Positions 6,133 to 33,639 of a DNA stretch of 36,267 bases are shown piece by piece. Every line of letters begins with the position of its first letter. Position 1 is the first letter of the stretch. This DNA comes from a virus. Made by a program: the position numbers and the translations under genes. Location: UHGV virus genome UHGV-0220921; one strand, written 5' to 3'. Below the pieces are notes generated by a model that saw only the letters and a program-made list of their open reading frames with translations, did not search any database and was not told the DNA's origin.

Positions 6133-6555
6133 ATGACAACATTTGAAAGAATAAAAGAACTAGCGAAAAACAAGAATAAAAACCTTCAACAAGTCGCTAA
6201 AGATTTGAAGTACGGAGAGAATTACTTTTATAGTTTAAATGCAGGAAAACAGCCAACTGCCGAAAAGTTACAAGAAATTGCTGACTACTTCGACGTATCT
6301 GTAGATTATTTGCTAGGACGTACTGAGAAAAAAAGATACTATGATTTAACAGAAAAAGACGAGCGTGATATTCAACAAGAATTACAGTCATTAATCGACG
6401 ATTTATCTAATGCTGATGGAATGGCTTTTTCGAAGAAAGATAATGAAATGAGTGAAGCGACACGTGAAGCTCTCATTATTTCTTTAGAGAATGCTTTGCG
6501 AATAGCTAAAATAGAAGCTAAGAAAAAATACACACCTAAAAAATATCGCGATTAA
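6133..6555 (+). CDS. XRE-family HTH repressor (cI/ImmR-like)
   Basis: N-terminal HTH FERIKELAKNKNKNLQQVAKDLKYGENYFYSLNAGKQPTAEKLQEIADYFDVSVDYLLG. RBS AAGGAA precedes ATG 6133 (the track start at 6112 lacks an RBS). It is followed by ImmA. Confidence 0.85.
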   Translation: MTTFERIKELAKNKNKNLQQVAKDLKYGENYFYSLNAGKQPTAEKLQEIADYFDVSVDYLLGRTEKKRYYDLTEKDERDIQQELQSLIDDLSNADGMAFSKKDNEMSEATREALIISLENALRIAKIEAKKKYTPKKYRD

Positions 6556-7886: not shown

Positions 7887-9092
7887 ATGGCAAAAAAAGA
7901 AATTGATAAACGAATTAAAAAGCACTTAACAAAAAAAGGAGAAGAAAAATATCAGTTTAGTCTGTACTTAGGAGTTGATCCGCTAACAGGAAAAAAAAGA
8001 AAAACAACGAGACGAGGTTTTAGTACGCCATTAGCCGCTGAGAGAGCTTTAAAAAGATTGGAGGCAGATATACAGGAAAAAGGACTGCAAGCTTCTACAG
8101 CTCAAAAGAGCAAGAAATTCGAATATGTTTACGGCTTATGGTTTGAAAATTATAAAAAGACAGTTAAAGAAAGCACTTGGTCCTCCACCAAACAAATTTT
8201 TGACACACACATCTTAAAAGTGTTTGGAGATAAGTTCATTGACAAAATAGACGTTTTTTTCTGTCAAGAAGCAGTAAACACTTGGTCCGATAGCCATCCT
8301 AAAATTTTTAAGAAAATAAAAAATTACACATCTAATGTTTTTGATTACGCTGCTTCTTTACAAATTATAACTAGCAATCCTATGAAATTAGTTTCTATTC
8401 CACGTGGAGAAGCTCTAGATATCGAAGATAAAAATATCGAATTTTATACTAAAGAAGAATTAATCGAATTTTTAGAAGCAATAAGAAACGATGATGATGA
8501 AAGATATTTATTCTTTTCCCTATTGGCTTTTACAGGTATAAGAAAAGGAGAAGCTTTTGCACTGACCTGGTCGGATATTGATTTTAAGAGCAAAACACTC
8601 AATATTAATAAAACTGTAACAAGAGGTTATCAAGGGAGATTGATCGTAAATACTCCTAAATCAAAATCTGGAAAAAGAAAAATTTATCTGGACAATGATT
8701 TGATCAGTTTATTGAGAAAGTATTATACAAAAAACAAAACGATCGTTACAATCCAAAGCGAAAACTTAATTTTTCACCATGATGGTCTTCTCTATAACCC
8801 TACAGTTTCACGTTCGTGGCTTAATGTCATATATAAGCATCATCCAGAATTAACTAAAAGAATCACTACTCATGGTTTTCGACATACTCATGCCTCTCTC
8901 CTTTTTGAATCAGGAGCTTCTTTAAAAGATGTTCAGGAACGTTTAGGGCATGCAGACATTCAAACTACTTCAAATATTTACACTCATGTAACTGAAACTC
9001 AAAACAAAAAAGTTATCAATAATTTTGTAGCATTTATGAAGAATAGTACTCAGGGGGAGTCAAAAGGGGAGTCAAAAAATATTTTAGGTTAA
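7887..9092 (+). CDS. int: tyrosine site-specific integrase
   Basis: C-terminal catalytic region HGFRHTHASLLFESGASLKDVQERLGHADIQTTSNIYTHV carries the R..HxxR..Y signature. It is followed by the attP-like region. Confidence 0.95.
   Translation: MAKKEIDKRIKKHLTKKGEEKYQFSLYLGVDPLTGKKRKTTRRGFSTPLAAERALKRLEADIQEKGLQASTAQKSKKFEYVYGLWFENYKKTVKESTWSSTKQIFDTHILKVFGDKFIDKIDVFFCQEAVNTWSDSHPKIFKKIKNYTSNVFDYAASLQIITSNPMKLVSIPRGEALDIEDKNIEFYTKEELIEFLEAIRNDDDERYLFFSLLAFTGIRKGEAFALTWSDIDFKSKTLNINKTVTRGYQGRLIVNTPKSKSGKRKIYLDNDLISLLRKYYTKNKTIVTIQSENLIFHHDGLLYNPTVSRSWLNVIYKHHPELTKRITTHGFRHTHASLLFESGASLKDVQERLGHADIQTTSNIYTHVTETQNKKVINNFVAFMKNSTQGESKGESKNILG
9054..9077. repeat. tandem 12-mer GGGGAGTCAAAA x2 at the int 3' end (encodes GESKGESK); candidate integrase arm-type site
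   Basis: The exact 17-mer AGTCAAAAGGGGAGTCA at 9058-9074 recurs at 9301-9317 in direct orientation, flanking the tRNA-like core. Confidence 0.45.
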
Positions 9093-9143
9093 ATTACAAC
9101 AAAAAAAGACACGATCGAAATCGTGTCTAATCGTTGATATATA

Positions 9144-9200
9144 AGGAAGGTACGGGGATTGAACCCGTGCGCCGGTATTAGCCGGTTCGCCGGATTTCGA
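9144..9200 (-). other. tRNA 3'-end-like fragment (T-arm ACGGG-TTCAATC-CCCGT plus acceptor 3' strand ACCTTCC, no matching 5' acceptor); putative attP core
   Basis: The reverse complement of 9145-9168 reads GGAAGG/TACGGGGATTGAACCCGT. The GC-rich CCGGCG repeats are unlike the AT-rich genome. Phages integrating into tRNA genes carry the tRNA 3' portion in attP. Confidence 0.4.
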
Positions 9201-9295
9201 GAATAGGGTTTAAAGCTGATTTTAAGTGTTTTTCGCTTATTATCAGCTTTTTATTATCTAAAAAAACAACTTTTAGAGACATCCATATACTGCTT

Positions 9296-9317
9296 GGGAG
9301 AGTCAAAAGGGGAGTCA
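9296..9317. repeat. second copy of the GAGTCAAAAGGGGAGTCA arm-type repeat
   Basis: Exact 17-mer match to 9058-9074. Confidence 0.45.
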
Positions 9318-9355
9318 TTTTTATATTTTATTCGCAATTTAAATCACTTAGAGTA

Positions 9356-9429
9356 TGTACCCTGTAGGACTCGAACCTACGACCGGACGGTTATGAGCCG
9401 TCTGCTATGACCAACTGAGCTAAGGGTAC
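9356..9429 (-). tRNA. tRNA with CAT anticodon (elongator tRNA-Met or tRNA-Ile2 type), 74 nt, CCA not encoded
   Basis: Manual fold of the minus strand: acceptor GTACCCT/AGGGTAC (7 bp), D-loop with GG, anticodon stem GACGG/CCGTC with loop CTCATAA, variable loop CGGTC, T-arm GTAGG-TTCGAGT-CCTAC, discriminator A. The paired 1-72 position argues against an initiator. Confidence 0.8.
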
Positions 9430-9583
9430 GGAAAGCCATAAACAGTCAACCAGTAGAATGTGTGGCAACAAACCTGTTATCGCATATCTTGGAGTGTGAC
9501 TATTTATGAGTGATAGTGAAGATATGCGACAACATCACTATTTTATCGAATGATTTTTATAGTTTTCAATATAATTATGTACT

Positions 9584-9611
9584 TCCCCTCAAAAATGAGG
9601 GGCTATTTTTA
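9584..9611 (+). terminator. intrinsic terminator (TCCCCTC-AAAAAT-GAGGGGC followed by TATTTTTA)
   Basis: Hairpin plus T-tract. It is near-identical to the terminator at 10567-10590: TATGTACT[T/G]CCCCTCA...GAGGGGCT. Confidence 0.6.
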
Positions 9612-9728
9612 TAACGTCAAATAGAACAGATGGTCGAGGAACGGAAAAAATAATTAAATAATTTGATTATTTTTTCAAAATGCTTTACTAAAGTCTATTT
9701 CCATTGATATACTGTAAGAGAGCAAAAT

Positions 9729-9757
9729 TTGACTTTCATTATTTTATGAAGTACAAT
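9729..9757 (+). promoter_or_regulatory. sigmaA-type promoter TTGACT-17-TACAAT driving the small-ORF/GNAT cassette
   Basis: Read directly. It lies about 45 nt upstream of the AGGAGG RBS and ATG 9803. Confidence 0.6.
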
Positions 9758-9802
9758 GTGAAAGTTTCAAACTAAATATAGTCCATTTAGGAGGTCATAA
9801 AA

Positions 9803-9982
9803 ATGCGTCTAAATTTAGAGCAGAATCCATCCATTTTTGTTGCAAATTCTACAGAAATGAAGAGAATTACTTCAGTCGCATCAAATAAAAAGAAAACATT
9901 TCTATCAGAAAAAGATTACAATAAAAGTGTAGAATCTGCAAAAAAAGCTTTTAATAATCTAGCATTTGAATTATCACGATGA
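9803..9982 (+). CDS. small protein (59 aa), translationally coupled (ATGA overlap) to the downstream GNAT gene; candidate antitoxin-like partner
   Basis: Strong RBS TTTAGGAGGTCATAAAAATG. Manual translation gives MRLNLEQNPSIFVANSTEMKRITSVASNKKKTFLSEKDYNKSVESAKKAFNNLAFELSR. The TGA at 9980-9982 overlaps ATG 9979-9981. It is not in the ORF track because it is under 60 aa. Confidence 0.5.
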   Translation: MRLNLEQNPSIFVANSTEMKRITSVASNKKKTFLSEKDYNKSVESAKKAFNNLAFELSR

Positions 9983-27303: not shown

Positions 27304-29031
27304 TTATCTATAGATGGAACTAAGGTAATCATCTAATTCATCCGAATCAATATCTGTCATCTGATTCATCGTTTCCTTATGACCACACAAAAACGCCACG
27401 AAACCATCAATCTTTTTCTTTGATTGACGTTTACTTGGCGCTTTTTGTCCGTTGATGTTAGTGATTGCTACAACGTTCAAGGTGCAATAAAGGAACAATG
27501 GATTATCAAATTGAATTCGTTTCTCATAAAACAACCGTTCGACATCATCAAAAGGAGCGTTCAACACTTTAGGATATTGGGCAACCTCAACGCATTCCAA
27601 TCCTAAGTTCTCCAATTTCTCAACAAGTTTGTCGCTCATCGCTGGATCATAATTCACTTGTTGTATATCGTATAAATCCATGCAGTCTTCGATGTACTGC
27701 AAGATTTGATCTTGATCAATCATTTTACCATCGCAAAATTCAACAAAACCTTGTTCAGCTAAATCGCTGTAAGGCACGTTATCTTCTTTTTCTCGAAACT
27801 CTAAATCTTCATTGGGAATAAAATAAAGCTGCTTCACTTTAAGGACCGCTTTTCCATCTTCATCCCACGTTGGGAAGTTTAAAGACACACAGGTCAAATC
27901 TCGTGTGCGTGATAAATCCAAACCAATGTAACAAGGTTCACCACTTAAATTTCCAAGCTCTTGGGTAGTAACCAAACACGGCTCTACTTGATCCTGTTCA
28001 AAGAAATTATCCGCACCGTTTACAAATACATCCAAGTGCTTCGTTAGAAACTCGGCTTTTGAATGTGCTGAACGTTGTGCCGTTTTAAACGCTGACTCCA
28101 AGGCGGAAAGATCAACTGATATTCCCCAGTTAGGATTGCACATTTCCCAAACTTTTCTATCCGTCCAATCATAGTTTTTATTTGGTTCATAGATTAGAAC
28201 AAAGTTCGAATCATTATCATCACGTTTCAACACTTCTTTTGCTTCACGATATACGCGCATTCCAACAGACGATGAACCTTTCCCAGCAGTTGAAATATTA
28301 AACATCAATGGTTGTGGCAAAGAGATTTGTGCAGACTTAAAATTGTCATACTGTTCCATTTTCTCTTGCTTATGCAGCTCATCATTCAATACAAAATATG
28401 GATTAGAACCCTCAATGTTATCGATATTCTTCGTTTGAACAATAAATTTATTCGAATAAGCCATATCTTCATGAATATAATCATAAGTAATACTAGAAAC
28501 AGTTCCCTTTGGTCCTTTGAATATTTTAGTTCCTTCAAGTAGGATTGGATTGTTTAATATTGTAGCTGCAAAAGGTTTGGCAGCATATTGAGCTTGAGCA
28601 AAGTCAGAAGCGCATGCATAACAATCGACTGACAAAGCACCTTCTCCATACATTGCATAGCCTAATGAACCGACAGCAATCAATGTTTTACCGTTCTTTT
28701 TAGGGATTTGGACATACGCTTCACGAGTAACACGGACAATTTGCCCTTTTTCATTTTCTTTAACCCATCCATACATCCACGAGTAAATAAATTTTTCCCA
28801 AGGTTCTAAAATGAATGGCTTTCCAACCATCTCACCTTTTGTGTGAACAATAAACGACTCAACCCAGTCCATCATTTCATTCGCACGATCTACATCAAAC
28901 CAAATATCTTTACGTTTTTTCCACCGATACCAACGATCCACTGCCAAACGAACAGTTTTAGGATATTTCCCAGGTTTCTTTCTTACTTCTTTTGCAAATA
29001 AATCGGCATAATTTACACCAGGTTCGATCAT
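27304..29031 (-). CDS. terL: terminase large subunit
   Basis: 575 aa, overlaps the terS 3' end, has ATPase and nuclease halves. Confidence 0.9.
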   Translation of the reverse strand: MIEPGVNYADLFAKEVRKKPGKYPKTVRLAVDRWYRWKKRKDIWFDVDRANEMMDWVESFIVHTKGEMVGKPFILEPWEKFIYSWMYGWVKENEKGQIVRVTREAYVQIPKKNGKTLIAVGSLGYAMYGEGALSVDCYACASDFAQAQYAAKPFAATILNNPILLEGTKIFKGPKGTVSSITYDYIHEDMAYSNKFIVQTKNIDNIEGSNPYFVLNDELHKQEKMEQYDNFKSAQISLPQPLMFNISTAGKGSSSVGMRVYREAKEVLKRDDNDSNFVLIYEPNKNYDWTDRKVWEMCNPNWGISVDLSALESAFKTAQRSAHSKAEFLTKHLDVFVNGADNFFEQDQVEPCLVTTQELGNLSGEPCYIGLDLSRTRDLTCVSLNFPTWDEDGKAVLKVKQLYFIPNEDLEFREKEDNVPYSDLAEQGFVEFCDGKMIDQDQILQYIEDCMDLYDIQQVNYDPAMSDKLVEKLENLGLECVEVAQYPKVLNAPFDDVERLFYEKRIQFDNPLFLYCTLNVVAITNINGQKAPSKRQSKKKIDGFVAFLCGHKETMNQMTDIDSDELDDYLSSIYR

Positions 29032-29492
29032 TTTTCAGTACCTGCCTTCTTACGCCATTTGTTTCTGTGCGCTGCTAGTTCATCTACTGGCTTTTCTTCT
29101 GGACGTGTAATTTCTTCATCTTTTCTTGCAGTCGATCCGCCAGTTATTTGTCTACCAGTTTTAGCCTTATTCGTTAGCCCCAACAAATCTAGAGCTTTCA
29201 TTTTCTTATCTGACCAAGTTTCTACTTGCTGCGCCAATGGATGCTTCGATTGATTAGTGGCACCTGATTTATTCGTGAATTTTTGCGTCTCCGGAAAGCC
29301 TTTTTCCTTCCACAAAAGATATTTGTGTTGGTAAATTTCAAAAATATCCAAATATGATTCGATTAATGGATCAAGAGTGATAGTGTACAAATCAGACAAA
29401 TTCATTATTTTTAAAATACGAGCTTTTTCAGCACTTACTTTTTCATCAACAATCGCTTTACGTTGCGCTTTAGTCGTCATACTTGTATACAC
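29028..29492 (-). CDS. terS: terminase small subunit (P27-like; start GTG 29490-29492 or ATG 29478-29480)
   Basis: About 150 aa, immediately upstream of terL and downstream of the HNH/cos region. Confidence 0.75.
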   Translation of the reverse strand: MYTSMTTKAQRKAIVDEKVSAEKARILKIMNLSDLYTITLDPLIESYLDIFEIYQHKYLLWKEKGFPETQKFTNKSGATNQSKHPLAQQVETWSDKKMKALDLLGLTNKAKTGRQITGGSTARKDEEITRPEEKPVDELAAHRNKWRKKAGTEK

Positions 29493-29592: not shown

Positions 29593-29973
29593 TCAGTTGA
29601 AATACGAAGGGAAAACTTTTTTGTCTTCCGTTTCGTTTTCAACAATTGGATGACATTTTGAACATAAAAGCATGAGATTGTTTGGATCAAGCTTAAGCAG
29701 TTCATTGTCTTTGATTGGTACAATGTGATGGACGTGTGCCCTCTTGCCAAAGATGAACTGACCACATCGCTGACAGTGGCCACCTTCTCTTTCGTAAATA
29801 AATTGGCGCATATCTTTCCATGCCTGTGTTCGATAGAATGGTTTGTTCTCATGATGATAAACAGACTTTGCTTGCTGCTTCTTCTTGCGTGATCTGCTTG
29901 ATCTCTTGTGTTCAGTACAGTAGATACCCTTTGCTATCTTGTTCGTGCATCCGTCAAACTGACAGTACTTCAT
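29593..29973 (-). CDS. HNH endonuclease (terminase-associated)
   Basis: Contains HCQRCG...HVHHIVP...NNLMLLCSKCH. Confidence 0.9.
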   Translation of the reverse strand: MKYCQFDGCTNKIAKGIYCTEHKRSSRSRKKKQQAKSVYHHENKPFYRTQAWKDMRQFIYEREGGHCQRCGQFIFGKRAHVHHIVPIKDNELLKLDPNNLMLLCSKCHPIVENETEDKKVFPSYFN

Positions 29974-30371: not shown

Positions 30372-30738
30372 TTTGATTCTCTCCTTTGTAATTTGTACTG
30401 ATTACTTTTGCGCCCATCCGCTCATACCATTCAACCTGTTCTTTTAAATTCGGTAAGGTCCTAGAAATCAATGCTATGGTTAGGTGAGTTTTGCGTTCTG
30501 TTCTATCAATTATTGCTCCGGAATATTTTTCAATAGTCAGGCTATTATCAATACTGACACTACAGTGGTTGCCATTCCAGCTTGGCTTGATATCGCTAAT
30601 CACAATATTTCCATCGGCATCTTTTATTTCATTTTTAATCCAACGTCTACTGTTGTCATCTTCAATCGCTTTTTTATAAACTTGCCCCATACCCGTTGGA
30701 ACATCAAAAGTAAGTACAGCCTCATGAAAATCATTCAT
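30352..30738 (-). CDS. hypothetical protein (start trimmed to MNDFHEAV)
   Basis: RBS AAAGGAG lies 9 nt before ATG 30736-30738. The track's N-terminal extension would read through the upstream terminator hairpin. Confidence 0.5.
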   Translation of the reverse strand: MNDFHEAVLTFDVPTGMGQVYKKAIEDDNSRRWIKNEIKDADGNIVISDIKPSWNGNHCSVSIDNSLTIEKYSGAIIDRTERKTHLTIALISRTLPNLKEQVEWYERMGAKVISTNYKGENQNGNNQN

Positions 30739-30753
30739 AGATAAAACTCCTTT

Positions 30754-30784
30754 CAAAATAAAAAGACCACTCAAAGAGTGATCT
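30754..30784 (-). terminator. intrinsic terminator (AGAUCACUC-UUU-GAGUGGUCU then UUUUAUUUUG) closing the ORF-free structured region
   Basis: 9-bp stem with one G-U pair plus a U-tract on the minus strand. Confidence 0.55.
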
Positions 30785-31330
30785 AATATGTAATAGCAAC
30801 CTACACACAGACAAGTCTAATACTTCCTGCGCCTCACCACTGCCACATCCCTCGGTTGCTAACGAATACTGAAACAGAATACCGTCTCTGTTCATGACCA
30901 ACGCGACAGTACAAAGCTTTGTCGCAAGCAGGTTATCGTATTCCTAATAACCCCAACTAATGTTTCTCTCCTAACCTACACCTGAGAGTGGCACACGTCT
31001 GCGCTAGTATTTTATGCCTTCTAACTGCTAGTCGCATCCCGACTAGTCAGCCAATTCATCGGCATCCGATAAGATGAATTGTTTCCGTAGGTTCCTTAAG
31101 TCACTGGCAATGAATCGAACATTGCAACACCATTTTCCGATATTTTACAGACTCTTCATCATAAAAGCTCTCACCTCTAGAATTGTCTATCTTTAGGGGA
31201 ATTATTCAAGATGCCTCTTGCCCATTACCCTCGACGGTCTCTTGCCTAGCTGCATAAACTAAGCTCAGGTGCTCATTACCACTGATTTAAGTTATTAGCG
31301 TTACCTTTCCGCCACAGTGACAAATTAATA
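30785..31330 (-). ncRNA. candidate large structured noncoding RNA (about 0.55 kb, G-rich on the minus strand, ends at an intrinsic terminator); class unknown, possibly ROOL/GOLLD-like ornate large RNA
   Basis: No ORF of 60 aa or more lies in any frame across about 700 bp of an otherwise gene-packed genome. G+C is 25/60 and 28/60 in two hand-counted lines. Local hairpins are listed under findings. Confidence 0.35.
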
Positions 31331-31410
31331 TTGTGAAAATAAATACTAAGCGTATAATTTTATTTATCAGCGAGTGGTCCGCTGAAATAATTGATAAGGA
31401 GGTGGAAATT
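31331..31410 (+). promoter_or_regulatory. promoter TTGTGA-16-TATAAT followed by the conserved hairpin CAGCG-AGTGGTC-CGCTG and RBS AAGGAGGTGG (copy 1 of a duplicated promoter-leader element)
   Basis: Read directly. It leads into a 19-codon micro-ORF (31411-31470) antisense to 31477..31677. Confidence 0.5.
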
Positions 31411-31476
31411 ATGGTGCAGGTTCCTTATGCTGAATCCAATTGTTCGTGGTGGCGGGCAATACAAATATAGATTCTA

Positions 31477-31677
31477 TTAATCTTTAATTTGAGCTGGCAT
31501 GCCAATTGTCAGCTCTGTTAATGTGGCATTTTTTTTCATATAATCTTCCACTTTTGATACAGCATTTTGCAAATTAGAAATCGTCCAGCCTTTCTCGGTT
31601 ACAAAACTAATAACCGTTTCAATAAATTCTTTTTCCTCTGTTTCTAAAACAATCCTTTGCGTGTCCATTCTATTCAT
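31477..31677 (-). CDS. hypothetical small protein
   Basis: ORF track entry. RBS AAAGGAA lies 8 nt before the ATG. Confidence 0.5.
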   Translation of the reverse strand: MNRMDTQRIVLETEEKEFIETVISFVTEKGWTISNLQNAVSKVEDYMKKNATLTELTIGMPAQIKD

Positions 31678-31684
31678 TCCTTTC

Positions 31685-31745
31685 TGTTGTATAATTTCCT
31701 TATCAGCGAGTGGTCCGCTGAAATGAATTATAGGTGGTGAAAAAT
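31685..31745 (+). promoter_or_regulatory. copy 2 of the duplicated element: TATAAT (31691-31696), hairpin CAGCG-AGTGGTC-CGCTG (31704-31720), RBS AGGTGGTG
   Basis: An ungapped 25-nt match (TTATCAGCGAGTGGTCCGCTGAAAT) to 31362-31386 plus shared flanks. It drives the DUF1508 gene. Confidence 0.5.
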
Positions 31746-31925
31746 TTGTACTTTGTTATAAGAGAAGCAACTAATGGCCAATATTACTTCGTTATTAAGT
31801 CCGATAACAATGAAGTAGTAGCAACTAGCGAAACATACTTGACTAAATATTCCGCTGAACAAACCATTAATTCTATAAAAAACGGAATCACCAAAGACTC
31901 TCAAGTTATCGATATGACTAAATAA
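31734..31925 (+). CDS. DUF1508 (YegP-like) small protein on the plus strand (start GTG 31734 or TTG 31746)
   Basis: YFVIREATNGQYYFVIKSDNNEVVATSETYLTKYSAEQTINSIKNG matches the DUF1508 repeat pattern. Confidence 0.6.
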   Translation: MVKNLYFVIREATNGQYYFVIKSDNNEVVATSETYLTKYSAEQTINSIKNGITKDSQVIDMTK

Positions 31926-32331: not shown

Positions 32332-32560
32332 TCGTTTTTTCTCCAATACATAAATTAATAGACAGCAACGGATGATAGATAATAAGAACAATTTAGAAGG
32401 AGTTGGAATTCACATCCTTATTCTTAATATTTCCGTCGCTATCTATCGAAGCTTAATTGTGAAACAATAATAAAACGATGTTCCTTTTATTATTATTTTG
32501 TCTCAGACCTATCACTAATCTTTCGACACTATCATAATACAACATTGAATAGGTAAGTGA

Positions 32561-32626
32561 TTGGTATAAAAAAGGTATAAAATGGAAACCAAATTGGTAA
32601 TAAAAGGGTATAAAAAGTGTAAAAAC
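32561..32626. repeat. array of 4-5 direct GGTA(T/A)AAAA repeats
   Basis: Copies at 32563-32571, 32574-32582, 32596-32605, 32607-32616 and a degenerate one at 32619-32626. The array lies between the sigma-like gene's stop and the next operon. Confidence 0.5.
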
Positions 32627-32629
32627 TGG

Positions 32630-33097
32630 CTACTTGAAAGCAACCAGTTCTAACGATGAAGCAAATTGGATGATAATTCTGTTTGATTCTACTTTAACCG
32701 ATTCTTCGCTAGTATTATTCCTTTGAGCAGTTACATAAATGGGCAGACCATTGATATAACGATCATAGAATATCTTCTTGCGCCTTTCAGTCACATCGGG
32801 TTTGTGCGGATGCTGTATAGCAGAGTATCCTCTAATAAACAATTTATGCAAATACTCAAATTCTTCTTGTGCTTCTTCTTTATCAATCAACATTCTTTCG
32901 GCTTCAAAATCATGATTAGCTGTAGATGGTGGAACCAAGGAGTATGATGCTGTCACTTTTGGTTCTCGAGGTTGCCCTACTCTACATCTAGCTGATAGAT
33001 ATGCTGAAAGGAAAACACCAACATTATGTTTTGTGCGGTCCATATCAACATCTTTCGCGCTTGGTGTCTCATATTTCTTTACATCGAAAAGTACCAT
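32630..33097 (-). CDS. sigma-factor-like late regulator (region-4-like C-terminus)
   Basis: ERRKKIFYDRYINGLPIYVTAQRNNTSEESVKVESNRI fits the sigma-70 region 4 pattern. Confidence 0.45.
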   Translation of the reverse strand: MVLFDVKKYETPSAKDVDMDRTKHNVGVFLSAYLSARCRVGQPREPKVTASYSLVPPSTANHDFEAERMLIDKEEAQEEFEYLHKLFIRGYSAIQHPHKPDVTERRKKIFYDRYINGLPIYVTAQRNNTSEESVKVESNRIIIQFASSLELVAFK

Positions 33098-33171: not shown

Positions 33172-33639
33172 TTATTTTGTACGTGAAATGAGTTCTCCTG
33201 ATTTATACGCCTCAGCAAATTCAACCAAAGCTACTGCCTTCATTCTCTCGATAGTTCTATCGGAATATCCTAATTTTTCTCCTATTTGATACATCGTCAT
33301 CTTATTAGGAAAACAATAACTATAATAAAGTACCTGGAAATGGATTCTACTTAGCCGTGTTAATGCATCGATAACCGAATCTCGAGTACTTATCGCTTCA
33401 ATGATTTCTTCGTTTTGACTGTCAATTGTGAATTTCAAATTTTTGGTAACAGTCATCACGGAAAAGTCTATTTTCACTGGTCCGACCAAACGTTCTAAAT
33501 TTCTGTATCTTTTTAGTAATCGTCTAGCATTTTTCCTTGTTTGCTTAATATCTATATTCTCTAAAATGTTCACAATTGCCTCTTCTCCTTCCAGTTGTGG
33601 GATAACGCTCATTGTTGTAGGATAGTTGTAAAAAAGCAA
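33172..33639 (-). CDS. ArpU-family phage transcriptional regulator (late gene activator)
   Basis: LKRYRNLERL and the C-terminal HTH YQIGEKLGYSDRTIERMKAVALVEFAEAY are typical of ArpU/RinA-type regulators. Confidence 0.7.
   Translation of the reverse strand: MLFYNYPTTMSVIPQLEGEEAIVNILENIDIKQTRKNARRLLKRYRNLERLVGPVKIDFSVMTVTKNLKFTIDSQNEEIIEAISTRDSVIDALTRLSRIHFQVLYYSYCFPNKMTMYQIGEKLGYSDRTIERMKAVALVEFAEAYKSGELISRTK

Follow-up and report, generated by a model that had tools for sequence, protein, structure and literature searches.

A modular, terminator-ended phage RNA with a tRNA-Leu-like first domain ahead of the late genes of a temperate Enterococcus phage

The virus genome UHGV-0220921, whose full 36,267 nucleotides (nt) are the window of this analysis, comes from a temperate Enterococcus siphophage or prophage that carries the majority of its genes on the minus strand. 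Its late genes are 92% identical to those of the gut virus ctekg1 and related to those of E. faecalis and E. faecium phages. Two tandem activator genes of the phrog_248 (ArpU) type (32630–33097 and 33172–33639, minus strand) and the genes for an HNH endonuclease (29593–29973), TerS (29028–29492) and TerL (27304–29031) flank, on the upstream and downstream sides, a stretch free of open reading frames (ORFs). Within it a sequence-only reading had proposed that 30754–31345 encodes a large structured noncoding RNA (ncRNA) on the minus strand, ending in an intrinsic terminator. The terminator, G-U pairs and covariation support this proposal, and the RNA gene very probably occupies 31321–30755 on the minus strand. 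Two features had escaped notice: its first 223 nt form a tRNA-like domain, of which one listed hairpin is the T arm, and the RNA as a whole is a mosaic of exchangeable modules. The outer part of the proposed extent did not hold as RNA, since 31331–31470 carries a plus-strand promoter, a 5′-untranslated region (5′-UTR) hairpin and a gene remnant; this divergent cassette and remnant, overlooked before, take up about 130 nt of the ORF-free gap.

The gap itself is as described: no frame holds an ORF of 60 amino acids (aa) or more between 30775 and 31476, and at 702 nt it ranks second in length among the ORF-free gaps of the window. The longest, 9093–9978, contains a tRNA-Met gene (9356–9429, minus strand), right after a 401-aa plus-strand ORF, and may be a prophage end or attachment region. 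Raised G+C was likewise found, at 43.5% in 30760–31318 compared with 37.0% in the whole window, a value attained by 0.8% of equal-sized sliding windows. The claimed G-richness of the minus strand is a real bias (G 27.4%, C 16.1%) that turned out less distinctive than supposed, its skew of 0.26 (window mean 0.13 ± 0.11) lying only in the top 7%. Folding energy is weakly better than that of shuffled sequences on both strands (z = −2.7 on the minus strand, −3.5 on the plus strand) and therefore does not identify the strand. The strand is told by the G-U pairs of module M2a and of the D stem, by the terminator and by the tRNA-like fold. All of the helices named by the sequence-only reading are present at the positions claimed for them, as read from the sequence:

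31046–31028, minus strand: hairpin CTAGTCG-GGATG-CGACTAG
31081–31052, minus strand: helix CAATTCATC/GATGAATTG
31125–31107, minus strand: hairpin GCAATG-TTCGATT-CATTGC
30925–30903, minus strand: helix GCGACA..TGTCGC

The minus-strand terminator directly ahead of the ribosome-binding site (RBS) of the next gene was recovered as well, with a 9-bp stem, a 3-nt loop and a U tract. From 5′ to 3′, the window copy of the RNA (about 565 bases) consists of the tRNA-like domain, M2a, M2b, M3 and the terminator, with the following parts:

31099–31321, minus strand: tRNA-Leu-like domain, from its fold and the covariation of its class
31321–31315, minus strand: acceptor 5′ strand GUCACUG
directly 3′ of the acceptor 5′ strand, minus strand: U8 and G9
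31312–31298, minus strand: D arm GCGG-AAAGGUA-ACGC, of the tRNA-Leu type
31297–31129, minus strand: insert where the anticodon and variable arms would be, beginning with an A/U-rich linker and continuing into branched hairpins (structure predicted)
between the insert and 31125, minus strand: GUU preceding the T arm in the window copy
31125–31107, minus strand: T arm GCAAUG-UUCGAUU-CAUUGC, with a 6-bp stem
31106–31100, minus strand: acceptor 3′ strand CAGUGAC
31099, minus strand: discriminator U, with no CCA encoded
30957–31098, minus strand: central module M2a, about 86% identical to lytic Schiekvirus phages, folded with alifold
30862–30956, minus strand: central module M2b, three predicted hairpins including GCGACA..UGUCGC around a HindIII-like palindrome
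30795–30860, minus strand: 3′ domain M3, with P1 AGCAACC/GGUUGCU, distal hairpin CAGAC-UU-GUCUG and 3′ junction GUGUA
30794–30785, minus strand: linker AUUACAUAUU upstream of the terminator
30784–30755, minus strand: intrinsic terminator AGAUCACUC-UUU-GAGUGGUCU and U tract, from a consensus scan, the hairpin at 30784–30764
30754–30747, minus strand: RBS, followed by an ATG at 30738

The first domain almost certainly adopts a tRNA-like fold of the tRNA-Leu type that is devoid of an anticodon arm. It is closed by a 7-bp acceptor stem (GUCACUG/CAGUGAC), and next to the acceptor 3′ strand lies a T arm whose 7-nt loop is of the UUCRAnn type and whose stem has 6 bp, not 5. Since GCAATG-TTCGATT-CATTGC pairs within this layout, the third hairpin listed by the sequence-only reading is this T arm. 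The D stem GCG/CGC and the GG are present and nearly invariant, partly because our search patterns fixed them; the D arm resembles that of E. coli tRNA-Leu. When constrained to a cloverleaf type, the fold of the domain lies 3 kcal/mol above the minimum free energy. The 169-nt variant of the insert found in the window copy is common to eight loci, which hold only four distinct sequences.

The same design recurs well outside Enterococcus. A search of viral contigs with the D arm alone returned tRNA-Leu genes, tRNA-Leu halves at attachment (att) sites and about 35 elements of the same layout from non-Enterococcus viruses. Members of this class share the 7-bp acceptor stem, U8/G9, the D arm, an insert of 33–200 nt, (C/U)AU before the T arm, a 7-nt T loop and the absence of an encoded CCA. 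Their T stem has 6 bp, compared with 5 bp in every genuine tRNA-Leu gene of the same scan. The inserts share no sequence, and what they have in common is a plan in which about 10 unpaired, A/U-rich nt precede a long irregular hairpin that reaches the T arm. In the predicted layout, members have no anticodon arm and have gained an extension resembling a variable arm. Across the class the nucleotide at −1 of G1 is mostly U or A, and G55 is frequent; among the class sequences listed, none of the trailers starts with CCA. About half of the wider class has A as its discriminator; the window copy has U. No consistent tag reading frame, as in transfer-messenger RNA (tmRNA), was seen in the insert of the few sequences judged by eye.

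Covariation among homologues, a check proposed with the sequence-only reading, was run and is present. A first alignment comprised 51 distinct sequences from Enterococcus and other sources, pre-filtered for pairing; 98.9% of its positions pair, and its covariation score is 0.476, compared with 0.114 when shuffled. Because of that filter, a second scan without any pairing requirement was run, which fixed only the D arm and the T loop UGCAAAU, matched at least 120 contigs and took their flanks unfiltered. The resulting 104 distinct sequences contain 74 different acceptor strands, and they form 7/7 acceptor pairs in 85 cases and 6/7 in 17. Overall, 98.2% of cells pair, as against 35–48% when the partners are slid by 1–3 columns. 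All seven acceptor pairs and three T-stem pairs vary on both sides, with two to six standard pair types at each acceptor pair, and the covariation score of 0.658 (0.159 shuffled) was attained by 0 of 500 shuffles. Several columns were fixed by the search patterns, and these are therefore uninformative on structure. Judged from these alignments, the elements make up a genuine class of structured RNAs, which imitate the acceptor/elbow half of tRNA-Leu and would be unable to decode.

This RNA matches no curated family. Membership in the ROOL or GOLLD families, raised by the sequence-only reading, was not borne out by cmscan: at E ≤ 10, the region 30400–31800 gave only chance-level matches (SBWMV UPD-PKh, a Ref1C fragment, SNORA7 and HOTAIR_3) and neither ROOL nor GOLLD. 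The fallback offered by the same reading, an unclassified phage ncRNA, proved correct. At gathering thresholds, Rfam 15 found only the tRNA-Met at 9356–9429 in the whole window, where the GOLLD covariance model, which includes a conserved 3′ domain, was silent too. As a positive control, which covered ROOL alone, the same tool detected ROOL (RF03087) with 259.3 bits in L002 and 262.9 bits in L011, both Schiekvirus loci. Across 37 related loci, Rfam matched tRNAs, ROOL, drum, int-alpA and Ref1C and left the family RNA itself unmatched. ARAGORN did not call the tRNA-like domain in default or intron mode and called none of 122 class sites a tRNA, and the Rfam tRNA model was silent. Nor did ARAGORN find a tmRNA in the window, and the sole Rfam tmRNA match was a 15-nt fragment in L011 (E = 0.35). 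An intron-containing tRNA-Leu gene was considered and dropped because ARAGORN at relaxed thresholds yields contradictory anticodons and "introns." In the full texts searched, a scope that did not extend to subscription-only papers, there is no description of the family or of tRNA-Leu-like phage RNAs. The class thus appears to be undescribed in that we could not find it, and an earlier description is possible.

Relatives show how the RNA is assembled. BLAST against GenBank phages matched both ends of the region to the Enterococcus hirae phage EH-TP1 and about 150 nt, at 86% identity, to lytic Schiekvirus myophages, in each case to unannotated DNA. Pattern scans of IMG/VR found the central core in 13 contigs and, with one 3′ motif, 27 true matches. 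We extracted 95 complete copies (75 distinct) of 202–690 nt with conserved ends. All hold the 5′ element, the 3′ domain and the terminator in one order, with the blocks between them present or absent, and the window copy likewise combines on one strand a 5′ tRNA-like domain, a 3′ domain of the form AGCAACYGAGG..GUGUAGGUUGC and the terminator. A genuine tRNA-Lys(UUU) (for example, at L001 3351–3425 and L003 4189–4263) lies between modules in EH-TP1 and in five IMG/VR contigs. In L126, a degenerate tRNA-Lys copy at about 8850–8927 is labeled tRNA-Stop(tta) by ARAGORN and looks decayed rather than like a true suppressor. Tandem pairs of tRNA-like copies occur in L018, L089, L095, L099, L102, L113 and L132.

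M2a, which occurs in about 35 loci, Schiekvirus included, comprises an outer helix AACCUACG/GUGUAGGUU, a helix CAAUUCAUC/GAUGAAUUG and the hairpins CUAGUCG-GGAUG-CGACUAG and GCGCA-GACG-UGUGC. In an alifold consensus of 16 distinct sequences, four pairs keep pairing despite changes on both sides. Support falls on the outer helix, on the CAAUUCAUC/GAUGAAUUG helix, where two adjoining pairs are compensated in three different ways, and on the GCGCA/UGUGC hairpin; many G-U pairs fix the strand as minus. The CUAGUCG hairpin is swapped for unrelated hairpins in Schiekvirus and in L126, and thus its shape is conserved rather than its sequence. M2b is nearly invariant in its 27 loci and absent from the Schiekvirus copies.

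M3 was found in at least 120 viral contigs with a degenerate 3′-domain pattern. Its 38 distinct sequences include about 12 unrelated distal versions. The constant elements are P1 (GCAACC/GGUUGC, an invariance partly imposed by the search pattern), GAGG and a purine-rich strand on the 5′ side of the loop, the hairpin abutting GUGUA and the return strand of P1. The hairpin abutting GUGUA is present in most copies with at least eight unrelated arm sequences, complementary at 5/5 positions, and P1 of EH-TP1 carries the compensatory change GCAAUC/GAUUGC. M3 stands without the other parts in L057. In L093 (2837–3131, minus strand), a viral contig that is AT-rich and unrelated, M3 has no tRNA-like domain with it and precedes two genuine tRNA-Leu genes (CAA and AAG) by about 55 nt. 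The terminator, whose U tract in the window reads UUUUUAUUUU, is common to 114 loci, and in relatives the RBSs of at least four different downstream genes follow it within about 10 nt.

The host range is drawn from GenBank phages of Enterococcus and Lactiplantibacillus and from three bacterial genomes only, because the pattern used to scan bacterial genome contigs had one N too many in the T stem. It gave 15 matches, of which 3 resemble class members: Paenibacillus (L255), Dysgonomonas (L267) and Agriterribacter (L262). Matches in the Flavobacteriia Aquimarina and Gaetbulibacter (L256–L266, L268) are tRNA-Leu-like, with an anticodon arm and a long variable region, and show no obvious acceptor closure in the portions shown. 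BLAST of a second tRNA-like subtype against GenBank phages gave no match.

In temperate phages the RNA stands between an activator gene and the late genes. The gene order of the window is the same in EH-TP1 and in L. plantarum H1-Guo. At non-Enterococcus loci, the ORF lying 650–1000 nt upstream is a phrog_248 or phrog_36 activator in 5 of 5 cases tested against PHROGs, two of which have terminase genes downstream. A home-made hidden Markov model placed an Ltr-type activator upstream of no fewer than 21 of the 78 sites and downstream of none. Proteins of the ArpU/Ltr type have been described as promoter activators (PMC3753634), and Quiles-Puchalt et al. (PMC3753634) showed ArpU/RinA/Ltr proteins to bind 7-nt direct repeats that follow immediately on the activator's own gene and precede the late promoter. 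The window has a corresponding layout:

32534–32613, minus strand: probable ArpU-type late promoter region, its layout matching the Ltr/ArpU binding repeats (PMC3753634)
32613–32607, 32580–32574 and 32569–32563, with a variant at 32603–32596, minus strand: TTATACC direct repeats just after the arpU-like stop codon
32539–32534, minus strand: −10-like TATTAT after the TTATACC repeats

Just upstream of the RNA, the minus strand has no convincing sigma-70 promoter, and the strong match there points the opposite way. In L003 and L009, TGGCGG(T/A) repeated three times occupies the equivalent place, which suggests a different activator specificity from that of TTATACC. There, the tRNA-like G1 follows about 242 nt past the stop codon of the upstream ORF, and a leader homologous to that of the window leads directly into the tRNA-like domain. 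The window leader is homologous to these from the −10 box on, and a 1.07-kb block of accessory genes then precedes the RNA. This arrangement makes it fairly probable that the RNA is part of the late transcript, so it would be expected to appear when the late genes switch on.

The close relative ctekg1, whose late genes are 92% identical, begins them with the same gene and likewise has a terminator at this junction. The RNA is absent there, and a protein-coding moron with its own sigma-70 promoter occupies the place. Thus, the RNA is dispensable cargo, and the spot is a hot spot for accessory genes. The terminators at 30755–30784 of the window and at 630–690 of ctekg1 (L272) both stand about 10 nt ahead of the RBS of the first late gene, behind unrelated upstream cargo. 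Late transcription must therefore read through the terminator in both phages, whether by antitermination or through leakiness.

In lytic phages, the same RNA belongs to tRNA islands. In the Schiekvirus phiSHEF16 and in a 105-kb contig, the family RNA starts 13 nt past the 3′ end of a full-length ROOL, and tRNA genes follow. In L. plantarum phage Satyr, a class member lies between tRNA-Leu and tRNA-Arg. Of 122 class sites, 32 have real tRNAs no more than 2 kb away, on the same strand every time. Full-length ROOL RNAs at L002 2297–2883 and L011 2307–2894, both Schiekvirus, are unannotated in GenBank. The position of the L002 ROOL 3′ end, 13 nt before the tRNA-like G1, suggests that RNase P may form it. 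Further along the Schiekvirus-like tRNA island of L011, a second, stand-alone tRNA-like element (6262–6390) has the T loop UGCAAAU and discriminator A. A 116-kb viral contig has a drum RNA (RF02958, 71.5 bits; L165 3449–3554) between a tRNA-like element, which precedes it by 115 nt, and two tRNAs further downstream.

What the locus encodes is thus a structured minus-strand RNA composed of a tRNA-like domain, interchangeable modules and a terminator; the RNA is associated with late-operon leaders and with tRNA islands, and a close relative does without it. The explanation that we consider best, at about an even chance, is a dispensable, late-transcribed modular RNA that would be excised by tRNA-processing enzymes and act as a tRNA mimic. 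Transcription would start from the ArpU-dependent late promoter, and RNase P would cut at G31321. Because CCA is not encoded, RNase Z would cut after the discriminator, U31099, and CCA would then be added. RNase P prefers U at −1, and the RNase Z of B. subtilis acts on precursors that lack CCA. The two cuts would release a stable tRNA mimic and a downstream structured RNA, and the mimic might engage a factor that reads the acceptor/elbow half: leucyl-tRNA synthetase (LeuRS), the CCA-adding enzyme or a tRNA-targeting defense toxin. Bacterial LeuRS recognizes its tRNA independently of the anticodon, through A73 and tertiary features of the D loop. Of the parts of this explanation, processing by RNase P and RNase Z is somewhat favored, while a mimic or decoy that acts in trans is a tentative proposal; leucylation of the RNA, like a decoy or sponge role toward factors that read the acceptor/elbow half, is speculative. 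A broader version, to which we assign a chance well short of even, is that a widespread undescribed class uses a tRNA-Leu-derived scaffold both as RNase P/Z punctuation and as a CCA-tailed, possibly leucylated mimic with exchangeable cargo. In this dual role, punctuation would form ends such as the ROOL 3′ end, and what the mimic would sequester is either a tRNA-binding factor of the host or an anti-phage toxin that targets tRNAs. Production would accompany late genes or tRNA arrays, and the cargo modules would include real tRNAs.

Several observations weigh against excision and mimicry. M2b and the insert of the window copy have no covariation support; their variants are too few, and their folds are predicted. 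The 13-bp acceptor/T stack and the discriminator U are unlike tRNA-Leu, which makes aminoacylation of the window copy doubtful. In several upstream classes, −10-like hexamers abut G1; if these hexamers act as promoters, transcription would start too late to include the 5′ acceptor strand. The H1-Guo element passes straight into mRNA with no terminator, and the short distance from the terminator to the RBS of the first late gene, about 10 nt, also suits a cis-regulatory role. The main competing explanation is indeed a cis-acting leader of the late operon, in which RNase P/Z punctuation would set the 5′ end of the late mRNA or a terminator/antiterminator gate would operate, much as in lambda pR′-6S-tR′. 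We know of no Q-type antiterminator for this system. Such a leader fits an RNA placed after the ArpU repeats and promoter and ahead of the first late gene, the close spacing of the terminator to at least four different first late genes, the H1-Guo element only 18 nt upstream of an RBS and the activator homologues that are found upstream and never downstream. However, ctekg1 keeps the same late genes and junction terminator without the RNA, which is hence not needed in cis, and in the islands of lytic phages the same RNA is followed by tRNA genes rather than late genes. Module swapping between 202 and 690 nt and embedded tRNAs would also be odd for a regulatory switch. We therefore regard the cis leader as possible, with a chance well short of even.

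Other explanations fare far worse. A decayed tRNA-Leu pseudogene or att-site relic in functionless spacer would account for the tRNA-Leu-like D arm, and the D-arm scan did return tRNA-Leu 5′ halves at prophage ends. Yet 74 different acceptor strands pair perfectly or nearly so with partners 80–250 nt away, the 6-bp T stem is a consistent derived feature, and the element is not beside an integrase gene, so we consider a relic very unlikely. Position upstream of the HNH, TerS and TerL genes might instead indicate that the element works as DNA, for instance as an origin or a cos/pac packaging site. This has a very slender chance given strand-specific pairing with G-U pairs, a tRNA-like fold with compensatory changes, its occurrence in the tRNA islands of unrelated lytic phages and the packaging of ctekg1 via the same terminase genes without the RNA. 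A divergent ROOL or GOLLD RNA would share the context, since these too are phage-borne, lie near tRNAs, sometimes embed tRNAs and measure several hundred nt (PMC5737381, PMC12286853). It is nevertheless extremely improbable: no match appears at E ≤ 10, the true ROOL of L002 and L011 (259–263 bits) is a separate adjacent RNA, and the smallest family members have only 202 nt. Hardly any chance is left, finally, for a hidden small protein-coding gene. The minus strand of the gap does hold ORFs of 26 aa (30957–31037), 26 aa (30834–30914) and 56 aa (30731–30901), but homologues gain and lose whole modules, the ATG of a 26-aa ORF lies within a hairpin and is absent from Schiekvirus copies, and the 56-aa ORF crosses the terminator. 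An RBS accompanies just one ORF of the gap, the 19-codon remnant on the plus strand, which lies outside the RNA; the RNA itself contains no conserved gene for a small protein.

It is useful to set the family beside known RNAs. Like ROOL (RF03087) and GOLLD, it is encoded by Lactobacillales phages and prophages, lies within or next to tRNA arrays in the same orientation as the tRNAs, and measures several hundred nt; the variable linker of GOLLD can hold a genuine tRNA (PMC12286853, PMC12990946), as can the family RNA. Unlike either, it has a tRNA-like 5′ domain, minimal forms of 202 nt and swappable cassettes instead of one conserved ornate core, and Schiekvirus phages carry it as a distinct RNA that directly follows ROOL. 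The tRNA-like structures of tmRNA, MALAT1 mascRNA, YrlA and plant viruses likewise keep the acceptor, the T arm and the D/T elbow (a predicted one in the family RNA) and have lost or replaced the anticodon arm, and tmRNA has a similar topology, with a large insert between its D and T regions. RNase P generates the 3′ end of MALAT1 at mascRNA, a position that the family RNA directly 3′ of ROOL recalls. In contrast to these structures, the D arm of the family is of the tRNA-Leu and not the tRNA-Ala type, the stack has 13 bp, and modules and a terminator follow; no Ro/Rsr-type context of the YrlA kind was noted around the family RNA. With class II tRNA-Leu, it shares U8, G9, the GCG/CGC D stem, A14, A15, G18G19, U48 and a UUCGAUU-type T loop, and it differs in having no anticodon stem-loop (an insert of 33–200 nt stands there), a 6-bp T stem and, in the window copy, a discriminator U, and in escaping tRNA finders. 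The lambda arrangement pR′-6S RNA-tR′ similarly places a short terminated RNA between the activator's target promoter and the first late gene, with termination just ahead of the late genes, whereas the family RNA is highly structured, tRNA-like, found in lytic phages too and dispensable. The drum, skipping-rope and DUF3800-I RNAs (PMC5737381) are also compact, structured, terminator-ended and not obvious riboswitches, but the family RNA has a different architecture and does not match their models.

ROOL and GOLLD are abundant RNAs whose cage-like structures have been solved, and their one constant clue to function is their association with tRNAs. The family described here adds a third kind of phage RNA to their neighborhood, one whose first domain is itself a tRNA mimic and which abuts ROOL in Schiekvirus. 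This leads to a testable hypothesis, namely, that ROOL-type RNAs and their neighbors may be cut from long transcripts by RNase P and RNase Z. That a tRNA mimic stands in the ArpU/RinA-controlled late-operon leader of many temperate phages of Lactobacillales suggests that late gene expression may be connected with host functions or defenses directed at tRNAs. Hundreds of phage genomes carry the element unannotated, and a covariance model built from our alignments would permit its annotation.

The divergent cassette on the plus strand lies outside the RNA and consists of the following parts:

31331–31470, plus strand: divergent cassette, from sequence and relatives
31331–31358, plus strand: promoter TTGTGA-16-TATAAT, 10 of 12 consensus positions
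31368–31384, plus strand: 5′-UTR hairpin CAGCGAGTGGTCCGCTG
31396–31405, plus strand: RBS
31411–31470, plus strand: 19-codon remnant ORF, an internally deleted copy of a 79-aa gene

The 79-aa gene (MVQVPYAESS...GGGQYKYRFY) is intact in L036, L090 and L119, and its C-terminal end persists in the window in another frame. The unit formed by promoter, 5′-UTR hairpin and RBS (about 75 nt; 31331–31408 in the window) is portable: in relatives, no fewer than 25 different small genes are driven by it, and together they resemble a set of morons. In L101, a fuller version at 8460–8578 scores above threshold (93.7 bits) for the E. faecalis small RNA family Ref1C. The window itself holds a second copy, at 31690–31733 on the plus strand, which drives a DUF1508 gene (31734–31925).

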